Of a stretch of 59,880 nt of DNA, positions 1-59,880 are shown piece by piece (the first letter of the stretch is position 1; the number at the start of each line of letters is the position of its first letter). The DNA lies in sequence record LR025197.1; one strand, given 5' to 3'. The stretch is from Escherichia phage vB_Eco_SLUR75. Both the position numbers and the translations under genes were made by a program. The notes beneath the pieces were generated by a model. It was not told the origin of the DNA. It worked only from the letters and a program-made list of their open reading frames with translations, and ran no database searches.

Positions 1-127
1 CCCTTATCAGTCGCTACACGGGCGAGCCGTTAGCTGTGTTCCATGCAGCTTAAGCTATAACGCACACAGCGCCGCGCTAGCGAGCTAATGTACATAGGTA
101 ATGGTAATGCATTAGCTCGGGCGAAAC
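1..127. repeat. Terminal redundancy, identical to 59754..59880
   Basis: Exact 127-nt identity between window start and end. 127 is the maximal k-mer of common de Bruijn assemblers, so the simplest reading is a circular-contig overlap rather than a biological terminal repeat. Confidence 0.85.
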
Positions 128-489
128 AGGCGCACAGCGTTGCGCACAGCTCGCACAGCGCACACAGACCCACGCAGGCCCAGCCGCGCGACCCGACCCA
201 TCCTTTTCCAGGTACTTGGATCGCTGGGGCGTGCCTTATCCATCCTGATAGTAAGTCCTTGCCTAAATCTCACCTGTCACATTCCTATCCACCTACATCC
301 ATGACCCCCCACCTACCTTCTTTTTGAATATATTGCGCTCATCCTTTCTAAATATATGGATTTTGGTAGTAAATTCTGAGTCGTCAACGTATAATTCGTC
401 TTGTAGCTGCTCCATAGCTATCATCTTTAAGCGGATGCAACCAATTTCTATCAGTTCACACCTGTTTTTAGAGCATCGAGGAGGTATTT

Positions 490-741
490 ATGTGCGACTC
501 CAGTGCAAGCGCTGCACCCAGCACCTCCAGCAATGTGGTTACAGAGGTAAATGCAATGCGATTAGGCCCATATCGCGGGTATTATGGTCGGGCAGCATGG
601 AATGACGCTACTCAACGTTTTGAAGGCTGGATTATCTGTCCGGAACGTGTTAAATTTCATTCCGTAAAAGAGAAAAATATCGTTCTTAATTTTCAAAAAT
701 GTGTCACTAAATATGTAGAGGAGCAAGAAGAATGCGTGTAA
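490..741 (+). CDS. Hypothetical early protein (83 aa)
   Basis: ATG preceded by strong RBS GAGGAGG; first gene after the 5' noncoding region. Confidence 0.5.
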   Translation: MCDSSASAAPSTSSNVVTEVNAMRLGPYRGYYGRAAWNDATQRFEGWIICPERVKFHSVKEKNIVLNFQKCVTKYVEEQEECV

Positions 742-6459: not shown

Positions 6460-7017
6460 ATGAACGGGGCAAGTCAAGAGCAATATGATCGTGACTGGAC
6501 GAATTACATCCAGTATGCAAATAGCTTGTCCGCTGAAGAGATGGCAATACGTGACAAAGTTGTTGCTGAGTACATGTTCGACTACAATTGGACTAACGCT
6601 TGCATGAGATGCGGGTTCAATGCTATGTTTGCACAGGAGCTTGGCCAACGCTTTGCCACGGACTGTTATGTTCGATGGAAGCTCAAGGAGATTGAAAGAT
6701 CCCGTGTTCAACGTACTTCTGAGCAAGCTAACATTGAAGCAGACCTTGAGCGTCAGCATATCATTGAAGCATTAAAACGTGAAGCTCATTATACAGGACC
6801 GGGATCTTCTCAAGCTGCTAGAGTCGCCGCATTGGGCAAGCTTGCACAAATTTATGATTTGGATGCTCCCAAGAAGGCTAAGATTGATGTTACTAACAGA
6901 GGCGGCGTAATGATAGTCCCTGCTGTAGCAAATATTGACGAATGGGAAAAAACTGCATCCGAGTCTCAACAACGACTAGTTAAAGAGACTGAAGATGGAG
7001 CTAAACCGACAACCTGA
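6460..7017 (+). CDS. Putative terminase small subunit (185 aa)
   Basis: Size and position immediately upstream of, and overlapping, the large terminase gene. Confidence 0.45.
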   Translation: MNGASQEQYDRDWTNYIQYANSLSAEEMAIRDKVVAEYMFDYNWTNACMRCGFNAMFAQELGQRFATDCYVRWKLKEIERSRVQRTSEQANIEADLERQHIIEALKREAHYTGPGSSQAARVAALGKLAQIYDLDAPKKAKIDVTNRGGVMIVPAVANIDEWEKTASESQQRLVKETEDGAKPTT

Positions 7018-8554
7018 TAACATGCCGCGAGTCGTCTGGAAACCACATCCAGGTTCACAGACACTCGCTCTATCCTGCCCCGCTGATATTATCCTATACC
7101 ACGGAACTCGCGGTCCTGGAAAAACGGACTGCCAGCTTATGCGTTTCCGTAAGAATGTTGGTGTAGGGTACGGTAAATTTTGGAAGGGTATTATATTCGA
7201 CCGTGAATATAAAAATCTTGATGACCTTGTAACTAAATCCCAGCGTTGGTTTCCTGAATTTAAAGACGGGGCTAAATTCCTTAGCTCTAAGTCTGATTAT
7301 AAATGGGTTTGGCCTACAGGTGAAGAGCTACTGTTCCGCGTTGCTTGTAAAGAAAAGGATTACTGGTCTTATCACGGTCACGAATACCCATTTATCGGAT
7401 GGAACGAATTAACAAAATATCCGGACGGGCGTTTGTTTGAAGCTATGATGTCCTGTAACCGTTCATCTTTCTTACCAGAAGATAACCCAATTATTAATCC
7501 AGATGGTACGGTCACATATTTACCGGATATCCCTCTTGAAGTGTTTGCTACCAGTAACCCGTTTGGTGCGGGGCATAACTGGGTTAAGAAACGCTTCATT
7601 GACGCTGCACCGATGGGTAAAATACTCAGGAAGACTACGCGAGTGTTTAACCCGAGGACGCAGAAAGACGAAGATGTGGTTACGACGCAATGCCATATCT
7701 TTGGTTCGTACCGTGAAAACAAAAACCTAAGTCCAAAATATATTGCAGAACTTATGTCTATCACAGACCCGAACAAGCGTGCTGCATGGTTGGGCGGGAG
7801 CTGGGATATTACATCCGGTGGTATGTTCGATGATCTGTGGCGTAGCACTGTTCACAAAGTACGACCATTCCCGATTCCAGCGAGTTGGAAGATTACACGT
7901 TCTTTCGACTGGGGTTCTTCAAAACCGTTCTCTGTCGGTTGGTGGGCTATTAGTGATGGTTCGGATGTTGTGCGTGAAGATGGCACTACATTCTCCACGG
8001 TCCGCGGTGACCTGTTTAGGATTAACGAATGGTATGGGACCAACGGTAAAACAAACGAAGGTCTACATTTGCTGGACTCAGAAATTGCAAGCGGTATACT
8101 GGAGCGGGAATTGGCCTGGGGTATACACGATCGTGTAGTTCCTGGTCCTGCGGATAACTCCATTTGGGATCTGGAGAACAATAACTCCACCGCTGCAACA
8201 ATGGCGAAGAAAATTCGTCTTAACGGGAAGTTATACGACGGTATACATTGGAAGCGCAGTGATAAGTCTGCTGGGTCACGTAAACGGGGCTGGCAGAAAA
8301 TGCGTGAGTTCCTTAAAGCTGCACTGCGGGAAGATGCGAACGGTAAACCTTTGCCCGGTCCGCGCGAGAATCCAGCAATGTACATTTTTGATAACTGCAA
8401 CTATTTCTTTGAGCTGGTTCCAAGTCTACCTCGCGATGAAGTAGATCAGGACGACGTTGATACGGAATGTGAAGACCATATGGGTGATGAAGTTCGTTAT
8501 ATGGTTCTGGATCAAGCTGTTTATACAGGTGTTGGCAAAACTATCGGTATTTAA
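6995..8554 (+). CDS. Terminase large subunit (519 aa)
   Basis: N-terminal P-loop-like HGTRGPGKTD, size typical of TerL, directly upstream of portal. Alternative start at M10 (7022). Confidence 0.8.
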   Translation: MELNRQPDNMPRVVWKPHPGSQTLALSCPADIILYHGTRGPGKTDCQLMRFRKNVGVGYGKFWKGIIFDREYKNLDDLVTKSQRWFPEFKDGAKFLSSKSDYKWVWPTGEELLFRVACKEKDYWSYHGHEYPFIGWNELTKYPDGRLFEAMMSCNRSSFLPEDNPIINPDGTVTYLPDIPLEVFATSNPFGAGHNWVKKRFIDAAPMGKILRKTTRVFNPRTQKDEDVVTTQCHIFGSYRENKNLSPKYIAELMSITDPNKRAAWLGGSWDITSGGMFDDLWRSTVHKVRPFPIPASWKITRSFDWGSSKPFSVGWWAISDGSDVVREDGTTFSTVRGDLFRINEWYGTNGKTNEGLHLLDSEIASGILERELAWGIHDRVVPGPADNSIWDLENNNSTAATMAKKIRLNGKLYDGIHWKRSDKSAGSRKRGWQKMREFLKAALREDANGKPLPGPRENPAMYIFDNCNYFFELVPSLPRDEVDQDDVDTECEDHMGDEVRYMVLDQAVYTGVGKTIGI

Positions 8555-28488: not shown

Positions 28489-28514
28489 CAGCGCGTCTTC
28501 GGGCGCGCTTTTTA
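28489..28514 (+). terminator. Rho-independent terminator after tail fiber gene
   Basis: AGCGCG-tcttcggg-CGCGCT hairpin followed by TTTTT. Confidence 0.6.
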
Positions 28515-28643
28515 TTGGCTGTCAATCCCAATTTACAAAATCTTTACATTTGGATCATTGTAAAAAGCATGTTAAGGGCTATGCTTTACTTCGTAACCAG
28601 TTGGTTACATCCGCTTAACAAATCCATATATGGAGATTTTCCT

Positions 28644-56494: not shown

Positions 56495-57163
56495 AAATCC
56501 TCCTAGTGAACTGGTAATGCCACTATAAAACAGCTATTAGCTATTTGCAAGAATTGTTTTAATATAGTGCTTAGTGGCGTACATAGTGGGCAAAAACGTG
56601 TATAGTACGCCGTTACTGGCTTTGTAAAAGTTTGCCACTATAAACCACTATCCCACTATTCACTAATTTTTTATTTTTACACAGAGCAAAGTTTATAAGT
56701 TTACGGTTTCCCCCTTATTACCCCGTTTTCAAACAAAGAATTAGTAGTAGTAGTGAAAACGTGTAAATGCCACTATCACTACTATACTATTAATTATCTG
56801 AAAAAAGTTGGGAGTATACCCCTATAAACTTATAAACTTTCAGTCAACTAACTAAAATAAAACTAATTAAACTAATATTAATAATAACTATAAATATATA
56901 TAAAATAAGGATTTATTATTATTGTATATAGTACCTATTGGTATTATGTGATGAGTTTATAGTCACTAAATAAACTCTATAAATTTTAATAAACCTGAAC
57001 GGATGCAGATCAAAAATGAGAAGTCAAGTGCTTTTGAGGGAAATTTATTGAACTATTGTGATCGGGAGGTATATCAAGCTATAATGCGCTTAATCGCGGG
57101 ATATTGGAGGAGGACTTTATTGCGCGGTTAACCGGACCAGTAGGAGGGCTGGCCCGGAGTAGT
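56495..57163. promoter_or_regulatory. Candidate replication origin / control region: CCACTAT iterons plus AT-rich tract
   Basis: At least five direct and two inverted copies of CCACTAT within about 56520..56776, two copies of AAACGTGTA, then about 200 bp of extreme AT-richness (about 56800..57000). Confidence 0.45.
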
Positions 57164-58758: not shown

Positions 58759-59376
58759 CGTGATATTGAATAGGCCAAAAGTGCTATTTTAGAATTGTTT
58801 TGTATCTATAGTAGTACACATGCAGCTACGTAAAAAGTTGGCGCCAACAATACTGCAAACGATATAGATTTTGTGTGCGTCTTCCATAGTGCGGATAACG
58901 TCTATTATGTTAAATAGCTAAGTTGTTGATTTATGGTATGCCCTGCAATGCATTGGATAGTTAAGTGGTCTAAGCTATTGTTTTAAAAGGAGTTAAAATT
59001 TTGCTGTCTGCCAGCTGTAAAACGTTATGTCATTTACTGACATAAAATGTTGTCACCGAAATAGCACGTTTGGCCTAGACACAGATCAGGTCATGCGGTA
59101 CTATATAGTCAAAGGAAAGGGAAGCAGAAGTTGCAAAGTACCAATCCCGAGTAGTAAAGGTTAGGGAAAGCTGAATAGCTAAAGTACCTAACAGGTAGTC
59201 GGAAGGTGAATCGTCCGGATGAAAAAGGCCGGCAAGTGTTGAGACAAGGGCACGTTGAGTAACTCCCGAACAGGGGGCCTCCAAGACACCTTCTCCGGTC
59301 CCGCGGGATCCGGGACCTTCCGGGACTACCAACCAAAGAAGCAACAAAATAGTAGACAAAGCGAGAGGTAGGTATC
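58759..59376. promoter_or_regulatory. Divergent control region between the two arms
   Basis: About 620 bp without convincing ORFs: AT-rich proximal part, then purine-rich GC-rich segment with hairpin GGTCCCGCGGGATCCGGGACC. Confidence 0.45.
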
Positions 59377-59520
59377 ATGGTCCGCAAATACACGCTTACA
59401 CGCGCACAGCACGCGTTATTATTGCAGGTCATGCGCATGGAGTACGAAGAGACTACATGGGCGCAAGCTATGCAGACAGGGCGCGAGTTCTACGCGCAAC
59501 TAATAGCACAAAATGCCTAG
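59377..59520 (+). CDS. Candidate small ORF (47 aa)
   Basis: ATG preceded by GAGAGGTAGG; below the ORF-track size cutoff. Confidence 0.3.
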   Translation: MVRKYTLTRAQHALLLQVMRMEYEETTWAQAMQTGREFYAQLIAQNA

Positions 59521-59578
59521 ACAACATGATCGGTCTGGTGGATACTACACACATCAACCAAACAACGGGGTAAACAAA

Positions 59579-59806
59579 ATGCGTAGTTTCAAATGTGTAA
59601 GCGTAAATGCTACTGGTAACGGTCTGTTCACGGCAGGTAATGTATATGACTTCAACATGGAAAGTTATAAAGACACAACGCTTACAGGTGTAATGTTCGG
59701 TGGCGCTCGTGTCGTTCGCTGCCATTTAAACAAGAACACGGAAAATGAATATACCCTTATCAGTCGCTACACGGGCGAGCCGTTAGCTGTGTTCCATGCA
59801 GCTTAA
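59579..59806 (+). CDS. Hypothetical protein spanning the terminal-repeat junction (75 aa)
   Basis: ATG at M23 of track ORF 59513..59806; its last 53 nt lie inside the 127-nt repeat, so a partial copy occupies window positions 1..53. Confidence 0.4.
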   Translation: MRSFKCVSVNATGNGLFTAGNVYDFNMESYKDTTLTGVMFGGARVVRCHLNKNTENEYTLISRYTGEPLAVFHAA

Positions 59807-59880
59807 GCTATAACGCACACAGCGCCGCGCTAGCGAGCTAATGTACATAGGTAATGGTAATGCATTAGCTCGGGCGAAAC
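59754..59880. repeat. Terminal redundancy, identical to 1..127
   Basis: Same 127-nt sequence as the window start. Confidence 0.85.

Follow-up and report, generated by a model that had tools for sequence, protein, structure and literature searches.

Phage lambda carries, between cro and cII, the Rho-dependent terminator tR1 with its rutA, nutR and rutB sequences, and it is with this terminator that the subject of the present report is most readily compared. The subject is positions 54-489 of a 59,880-nt stretch of DNA from Escherichia phage vB_Eco_SLUR75 (sequence record LR025197.1), a stretch that is referred to below as the window. Like tR1, the segment interrupts a rightward early operon with a gap that is not translated, just after a small early gene and before delayed-early genes; in both, C is abundant and G scarce in the sense RNA, and a hairpin lies embedded close to the Rho utilization (rut) or rut-like sequences. 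Unlike tR1, the gap measures 436 nt rather than 118 nt, the excess of C over G reaches 27 per 80 nt (17 in lambda) and the number of YC (pyrimidine-C) dinucleotides 25 per 80 nt (11 in lambda), neither boxA nor boxB nor an N-like gene was recognised, and Rho dependence is predicted. The sequence common to the two loci amounts to one 8-mer, CACATTCC, which is probably a chance match.

A second parallel is found in the host. Rut sites are rich in C, poor in G and lack structure, termination follows 100-200 nt downstream of them, and the resulting 3' ends are trimmed by exonucleases (PMC7815308). In the Escherichia coli regions of this kind (Dar and Sorek 2018, as relayed in PMC7815308), the order of elements is a stop codon, one or more stem-loops without a U-tract, a C-rich and G-poor tract and a termination zone 100-200 nt further on, and the same order can be laid over 54-489. 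The E. coli cases, as given in that account, differ in being host 3' untranslated regions and leaders that were defined by Term-seq with and without bicyclomycin, whereas the phage locus is a sequence prediction and has conserved boxes in addition.

Judged by its conservation and composition, 54-489 is a real conserved non-coding control spacer in the rightward early arm of the phage genome, of a known general kind that has remained uncharacterised in this genus. As to what it does, we tentatively favour, with a confidence that falls somewhat short of even, a boundary between transcription units, in which a Rho-dependent terminator or attenuator would be followed by a weak, possibly regulated promoter and a leader. 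The elements on which the argument draws are these:

1-53, plus strand: 3' end of the upstream small gene, which starts at 59580, wraps the artificial junction of the record and has its TAA stop codon at 51-53.
57-70, plus strand: sharp left boundary of the conserved module, ATAACGCACACAGC, with the first CACAGC copy included.
81-119, plus strand: stem-loop with a perfect 10-bp stem (CGAGCUAAUG / CAUUAGCUCG) and no U-tract after it.
132-168, plus strand: T-poor, GC-rich stretch with three GCACAGC copies (132, 144, 153) and GCACACAGA (160).
190-217, plus strand: conserved block ACCCGACCCATCCTTTTCCAGGTACTT (ACCCGACCCAyC..TTTCcAGGTACTT), invariant in three distant lineages and in most of the E. 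coli group.
234-333, plus strand: C-rich, G-poor, YC-rich rut-like tract, including the conserved box CCCCACCTACC at 307-317.
236-253, plus strand: the most conserved block, T(G/T)(T/A)TCCATYCTGATAGTA (TGTCCATyCTGATAGTA), present once in the genome.
264-270, plus strand: conserved AAAATCT.
306-318, plus strand: conserved CCCCACCyACCT, then GAATAT.
320-357, plus strand: here the AT-rich segment begins, containing a direct repeat, CTTTTTGAATATAT / CTTTCTAAATATAT, at a spacing of 24 nt; the expected zone of Rho termination.
354-386, plus strand: conserved ATATGGrTTTTGGTAG.AAATTCTGA...GTCA.
360-387, minus strand: alternative promoter-like sequence TTGACG-16-CAAAAT, directed into the complementary, G-rich strand of the tract.
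367-395, plus strand: candidate sigma-70-like promoter TAGTAA-17-TATAAT, with a conserved, palindrome-like spacer TGA(G/C)NNGTCA at 377-386.
422-444, plus strand: conserved leader block CATCTTTAAGCGGATGCAACCAA, capable of forming a small 5-bp hairpin; the part shared among lineages is CATCTTTAAGCGGATG (422-437).
478-558, plus strand: ribosome-binding site GAGGAGG with ATG 490, and a second possible start, ATG 556.
59754-59880, no strand assigned: assembler overlap of the circular contig, an exact duplicate of 1-127.

By megablast, LR025197.1 belongs to the genus Seuratvirus (Queuovirinae), with 90-98 % identity to relatives. Members of this genus, among them the E. coli phages CAjan, Seurat, slur01 and phages of the BASEL collection, are common E. 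coli phages; sets of isolates assembled with therapy in view include them as well, and how they regulate their genes has been left unstudied. Positions 1-127 are identical to 59754-59880, this duplication being an assembler overlap, and the true genome therefore comprises 59,753 bp; because the overlap is that of a circular contig, position 1 is arbitrary and not a real 5' end. The "5' region" and the "junction-spanning gene" of a preliminary description of this DNA were consequently products of the assembly. In the circular layout, a rightward arm leads from ~59377 through small genes, lysis genes (~4.7-6.4 kb) and the terminase genes (6460-8554) to structural genes that end at ~30.3 kb, and the leftward arm extends from ~58.9 kb back to 32 kb. 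In the rightward arm ~700 bp precede the segment, terS/terL follow 6.4 kb downstream of it, and the genes on either side of it are co-directional.

The absence of coding from both strands of 54-489 is deduced from the way in which the segment varies. Variable sites at codon positions 1, 2 and 3, in that order, were counted in an alignment of 14 close relatives:

556-741: core of the neighbouring gene; 2, 1 and 12 variable sites.
88-327: predicted open reading frame (ORF); 16, 16 and 15 variable sites.
324-489: part of a further predicted ORF; 10, 10 and 9 variable sites.
293-424, minus strand: ORF on the opposite strand; 5, 5 and 4 variable sites.

Among the segments compared, third-position bias is limited to the gene core. 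The same alignment contains insertions and deletions of 1, 2 and 31 nt at 226, 270, 282, 305-306, 361, 433, 465, 478 and 487, and the five ORFs on the two strands of the stretch gave no match to any PHROG or Pfam family. Since codon positions are flat, the indels break the frame and family matches are lacking, coding was rejected for all five ORFs; a protein-coding gene, as annotated in several relatives, would be expected to show periodicity, an intact frame and detectable homologues, and displayed none of these. In the GenBank entries of relatives, ORFs at this locus are of varying length and strand or are missing altogether, and several of those records carry spurious genes. These results agree with the preliminary description, which had seen 436 noncoding nt after a gene end at about position 53 and had held that ORFs 88-327 and 324-605 look spurious. 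No tRNA was found in 54-489.

The start of the downstream gene is itself in some doubt. Codons 1-22 counted from ATG 490 (490-555) have 8, 2 and 4 variable sites at the three positions and thus no coding signature, SLUR25 has a 1-nt deletion, i.e. a frameshift, within 490-555, and distant homologues of the gene product align from residue 15-23 onward. ATG 556, which has GAGG before it, may be the real start. A proposed pairing between ACCTACCT (311-318) and AGGTAGGT at the ribosome-binding site of the first gene was discarded, as the first genes of Salmonella phage STP-SP5 and Hafnia phage yong3 have no matching site.

Conservation of the segment was assessed both within the genus and in diverged copies. 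The slot upstream of it is variable, with at least five unrelated genes among relatives, and behind each of these the conserved module starts sharply at 57. Diverged copies, at ~68-70 % identity, were compared from STP-SP5, yong3 and the metagenomic contig L026, the last being the one diverged copy gained by pattern scans of viral and metagenome contigs for distant homologues. When these copies are aligned, the similarity resolves into discrete conserved boxes separated by variable spacers. The boxes at 239-253, 307-317 and 371-386 occur once each in the genome, and this single occurrence led to the rejection of the idea that the boxes are a repeated operator or promoter motif. Within the genus, the density of variable sites is 12-16 % for 131-253 and 314-455, as compared with 8 % in the neighbouring gene, and rises to 35 % of columns in two fast-evolving sub-segments, 254-313 and 456-489. 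Comparison with related genomes, one of the checks proposed in the preliminary description, has accordingly been carried out, and the module is conserved across the genus.

As a separate observation on the left edge, all of the alternative upstream genes meet the conserved module at the same base, which is a mosaic recombination joint.

Particular lineages depart from this pattern in instructive ways. In SLUR25 and SA126VB, 115-232 is replaced by ~270 nt of different sequence, and the 190-217 block is, in the SLUR25 lineage, partly replaced. Skure and SA80RD are conserved through CCCCACCTACC and have 319-531 replaced by an HNH homing endonuclease gene, and WildeMaa and phiG7 also have a homing endonuclease at the locus, the match to the query ending at ~280. 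Because the HNH-carrying relatives keep 57-318 and replace 319-531, the persistent core is, on this comparison, 57-318, and the AT-rich part with its TATAAT is judged not to be essential. Retention of the core alone would also fit an element whose target is the incoming transcript, irrespective of the sequence that comes next.

Two further points concern the replaced parts. The sequence substituted in SLUR25 and SA126VB, in place of the GCACAGC cluster and the GC-rich part, carries another CCCCACCTA box, and the depositors of SA126VB annotated a terminator and a promoter there. The HNH gene is free-standing (SA80RD, locus L016, 1830-2312; Skure, locus L017, 1656-2129), and the site is an insertion hot spot.

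The property by which the segment stands out most is its base composition. Among all 80-nt windows of the plus strand, 240-319 has the largest excess of C over G (33 C and 6 G; z ~4.3), the runner-up is the adjacent 131-210, and in 234-313 the YC dinucleotides number 25, the highest count in the genome (mean 7.8, sd 3.2; z ~5.4). The C/T-rich tract noticed in the preliminary description is therefore both real and extreme, and it is on the sense strand that it is so. A C-rich, G-poor tract of at least 70-80 nt on the sense RNA and the untranslated state of that RNA are among the features by which Rho-dependent terminators are recognised, and both are present here. The bias extends beyond close relatives. 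In STP-SP5, in yong3 and in Providencia phage PSTCR7, which is of a different genus and has a gene homologous to the downstream one, each 5-kb locus reaches its strongest C-minus-G window within the corresponding gap. In the leftward arm of ChristophMerian (Nonagvirus), a gap contains, in sense order after a gene, a terminator hairpin, a C-rich tract that is the maximum of the locus (C-minus-G 31, YC 26) and an AT-rich part with repeats. The strand bias is kept where the sequence is not and, being tied to the transcribed strand, points to a function exerted on single-stranded nucleic acid, which would most simply be the sense RNA.

Direct homology to these two gaps was sought and set aside, there being none to the Nonagvirus gap and a marginal similarity (z 3.2) to that of PSTCR7. 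Each gap has features of its own. The ChristophMerian gap (locus L031, 3181-4219) is a 1-kb unannotated interval with an intrinsic terminator, the C-rich sense tract and an AT-rich part with four TTTATAAA-type repeats, and it could be a control region or origin of the genus Nonagvirus. The PSTCR7 gap (locus L029, 730-1372), 640 nt long and in the same relative position as 54-489, has an intrinsic terminator, two CACCCCACTA boxes and five AATAACA repeats with a regular period of 15-16 nt, and it is to window positions 338-380 that its marginal similarity applies.

Ahead of the tract lie hairpins and short repeats. A hairpin is present directly after the upstream stop codon in every lineage, with z-scores from -1.2 to -4.8 and with stem sequences that differ; the stem in STP-SP5 (GAGCUAGCCC / GGGCUAGCUC) reaches z -4.8. 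The three distant lineages have, ahead of this hairpin, an extra 7-bp stem-loop (GCGCUGU / ACAGYGC), the 3' arm of which is the first CACAGC copy, and in STP-SP5 a single base separates the two structures. No U-tract stands behind the hairpins of any lineage. With regard to the repeats, the preliminary description had counted at least five copies of GCACAGC between 61 and 170; in fact three copies are exact, two are imperfect (GCACACAGC at 62 and GCACACAGA at 160), and what does recur five times is the 6-mer core CACAG(C/A), at 65, 133, 145, 154 and 163. Genome-wide, GCACAGC has 9 copies for 8.2 expected and is hence not an enriched word overall; three copies within 28 nt were reached in 0 of 150 Markov-1 genomes, and the cluster is not a product of chance. 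Tandem Repeats Finder reported 142-167 with a period of 9. STP-SP5, yong3 and L026 have retained two or three of the CACAGC copies, and the SLUR25/SA126VB lineage is without the block. A host origin of the GC-rich part was dismissed after no match was found among 5,426 E. coli genomes.

Beyond these local hairpins, the segment does not behave as a folded RNA. Folding of the whole region is no better than that of shuffled sequences (z 0.19 for the plus strand and 1.29 for the minus strand), and the consensus energy of -8.2 comes with a covariation term of +0.8, i.e. without support, so that a globally structured RNA on either strand was rejected. Rfam gave no match in 54-489 at the gathering threshold or at E values up to 10. 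In the minimum-energy fold of the isolated region, ~272-313 is unpaired and small hairpins form further upstream.

For Rho to act here, the sense strand would need to be transcribed from an upstream promoter without an efficient terminator on the way. An early promoter family, ATAGCAC-N5-GCCTAGACA-N17 followed by TACTAT or GATACT, occurs at 59061-59104 and 59503-59546 on the plus strand and at 58787-58767 on the minus strand, flanking a divergent control region, and its motif is also present in STP-SP5 and yong3. A search for the motif (upstream motif plus TAGACA -35) found none in 54-489, and elsewhere gave two matches with three mismatches, at ~45.6 and ~52.8 kb, which were taken as chance. 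Between the early promoters and the tract, the single terminator-like hairpin has a 5-bp stem (59400-59416, inside a 47-aa gene), is weak and falls within the chance expectation of the scan. With early promoters upstream, one weak terminator-like hairpin in between and co-directional genes on both sides, 54-489 is probably transcribed in the sense direction. The literature searched on Seuratvirus yielded no transcriptome and nothing useful on termini or transcription.

Downstream of the tract, TATAAT is present at 390-395, as the preliminary description had reported, and is invariant in 16 close relatives. By itself the hexamer carries no significance (the genome has 33 copies for 44 expected), and what adds to it is its register with a -35-like hexamer, which recurs in STP-SP5 (TAGAAA-17-TATACT) and in L026 (TAGCAA-17-TATACT).

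Under the tentatively favoured interpretation, host RNA polymerase would start at the early promoters at 59061 and 59503, transcribe one or two small genes and then enter 436 nt that are free of ribosome cover. One or two stem-loops (57-119) would emerge first, directly behind the stop codon, and would be followed by a 200-nt stretch with C in excess over G, on the core of which (234-333) host Rho would load. Polymerase would be released by Rho 100-200 nt further on, in the AT-rich segment at ~334-530, and exonucleases would trim the transcript back to the stem-loops, which would stabilise its 3' ends. For the genes that begin at 490 (or 556), expression would come either from TAGTAA-17-TATAAT, the spacer of which carries a conserved palindrome-like possible operator, or by read-through past Rho. 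If so, the spacer would mark the end of immediate-early transcription and be a target for engineering or timing studies, and lytic Seuratviruses would depend on the Rho of their host in the way that lambda does at tR1.

Several findings weigh against this interpretation. The boxes ACCCGACCCA..GGTACTT, TCCATYCTGATAGTA and CCCCACCYACC are kept at ~68 % identity and occur once in the genome, whereas a generic rut site needs none of them, which hints at a ligand or function of greater specificity. When folded within a 1.8-kb context, the tract has a probability of being unpaired of 0.38, about average when set against the mean of 0.41. On the promoter side, TAGTAA matches three of the six positions of the -35 consensus and the site, falling below the threshold of the promoter scan, was not called; moreover, yong3 has no -10 hexamer, and the HNH relatives Skure and SA80RD have lost the whole element. 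The cluster of GCACAGC repeats is left unexplained by a Rho terminator. In ChristophMerian, finally, the intrinsic terminator precedes the C-rich tract, and loading of Rho would there be partly redundant. A specialist would find no surprise in a Rho-dependent boundary at such a place, and the sole unusual point is that sequence boxes are kept in a tract that generic Rho loading leaves unconstrained.

The points that Rho loading does not explain leave room for a dedicated cis-element of the Queuovirinae, an idea that we hold to be unlikely even when its two versions are taken together. In one of these, the core 57-318 would be a switch or decoy RNA, made up of a stem-loop and C-rich RNA, that controls or titrates host Rho and so times the passage from immediate-early to later genes; in the other, it is the opposite strand of the core that would act, as a G-rich R-loop primer site of a phage replication origin.

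Of the rival explanations, the one that survives best, although it is a doubtful one, is that the locus is mainly a promoter and operator; a promoter was also the idea of the preliminary description. TAGTAA-17-TATAAT would then be a regulated sigma-70 promoter for the genes from 490, a dimeric regulator would bind TGAC-NN-GTCA, and the rest would be leader or spacer; this is compatible with a Rho-dependent boundary, from which it differs in making the promoter the main function. The perfect and invariant -10 hexamer, the register that is kept in STP-SP5 and L026, a spacer that is more conserved than the hexamers themselves and the conserved leader block downstream all speak for it. They are offset by the poor -35 sequence of a site that the promoter scan did not call, by the lack of enrichment of TATAAT, by a sequence unlike the early promoter type of the phage, by the missing -10 in yong3 and by Skure and SA80RD, which are without the element yet keep 57-318, and the conserved, strand-biased 130-333 would have no part to play. 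The promoter that had been proposed thus gains from a register kept in three lineages and loses from its weak -35 and its absence in yong3 and the HNH relatives. Look-alikes of DnaA boxes, integration host factor sites, sigma-54 promoters and boxA, as noticed by eye, were not conserved among relatives.

A replication origin is improbable. The proposal would have an initiator bind the repeats or boxes, or else leftward transcription from the minus-strand promoter-like site (387 to 360) yield a purine- and G-rich RNA that forms an R-loop on the C-rich template and primes the family-A DNA polymerase of the phage, in the manner of ColE1 or T4. The R-loop origins of ColE1 RNA II and of T4 (oriF and oriG) resemble the locus in having a promoter-like site that reads into a G- or purine-rich RNA stretch, a C-rich template and an adjoining AT-richer segment; they are unlike it in that the promoter here is weak and not found in all relatives and that GC skew lends no support. 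In favour of an origin, the conserved boxes are unique in the genome, a cluster of repeats lies beside the AT-richer segment, the strands are asymmetric with a G-rich complement into which the minus-strand TTGACG-16-CAAAAT points, the divergent early control region is near, and large repeat-bearing gaps occupy analogous places in Nonagvirus and PSTCR7. An iteron-type origin is disfavoured, given that the repeats are 7-9 bp long rather than of iteron size (~17-22 bp), that the AT-rich part is modestly so (~63 % AT for a genome of 55 %) and that cumulative GC skew reaches its minimum at 56888, outside 54-489. As for R-loop priming, STP-SP5 and L026 have, on our reading of the alignment, a minus-strand -10 that is weak or has been lost, and the HNH relatives do not have the promoter block.

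Improbable, too, is a cis-acting RNA control of the early transcript, in which the 5' stem-loops would bring about antitermination of a put- or nut-like kind or the C-rich RNA would serve as a decoy that soaks up Rho. The put sites of HK022 are cis-acting antiterminator RNAs of two stem-loops. The locus resembles them, as a lead only, in that a pair of neighbouring stem-loops stands between early promoters and a terminator region, in STP-SP5 with one base between the two; it differs from them in showing no sequence or Rfam match, and the module of the E. coli phages does not form the first stem-loop. Hairpins with differing stems occur in every lineage, they immediately precede an extreme rut-like tract, within a long arm of co-directional genes that needs read-through or re-initiation, and the conserved primary-sequence boxes exceed what a generic rut site requires. 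The folding results given above, with no covariation and no gain over shuffled sequences on either strand, tell against such a control, as does the finding that none of the genes nearby was recognised as encoding an antiterminator protein.

That the segment has no function, being a decayed gene remnant or a recombination scar with a bias inherited from a former coding strand, is quite improbable. It does lie between a hyper-variable gene slot and an insertion site of homing endonucleases, with 115-232 replaced in one lineage and the sub-segments 254-313 and 456-489 evolving fast. Such a remnant would hardly be kept behind at least five different upstream genes, nor would its boxes and strand bias persist at 68-70 % identity, and variable sites in 131-253 and 314-455 are nearly as sparse as in the neighbouring gene.

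A role in packaging or as a terminus had been suggested in the preliminary description. A site of this kind (pac or cos), at which the small terminase subunit would bind the GCACAGC repeats, is very improbable: a cluster of short repeats together with unique conserved boxes would suit it, and end or pac signals at a great distance from the terminase genes exist in some phages, T7 and Mu among them, but the start of the window is a product of the assembly, the distance to terS/terL is large, the SLUR25/SA126VB lineage does without the repeat cluster, and no related record has the equivalent of 54-489 at its end (it lies ~3.4 kb to 57 kb from the start, and at 52-54 kb of 58-60 kb in records that start at terS, the CAjan reference record beginning at the terS start codon by convention). 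PhageTerm is reported, in the one paper found, to have failed for the Seuratvirus phiHS1, and an attempt to infer the packaging type from TerL gave a weak Terminase_6N match and no match to a PDB sequence.

Two observations made elsewhere in the genome may be added. The interval 58809-59363 contains, behind the first rightward promoter and ahead of the first gene (ATG 59377), a 270-nt purine-rich stretch with no convincing ORF; it has no homology to KurtStettler, CAjan or Greed, which have a 285-nt gene in this slot, and shows partial similarity to Seurat. Pairing of this purine-rich leader (59105-59380) with the pyrimidine tract was considered and rejected, the duplex energy being -80.1 as against -78.2 +/- 5.6 for shuffled sequences. 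On the minus strand, 28601-28631 is a near-copy of 352-363 plus 427-444, with ATATATGGATTT and TTAAGCGGATGTAACCAA side by side, the same two motifs being 63 nt apart in 54-489. This near-copy sits in a gap after the tail-fibre terminator at 28490-28509 and before a gene at ~28644, within a receptor-binding module that is common to T5-like phages and Nonagvirus.

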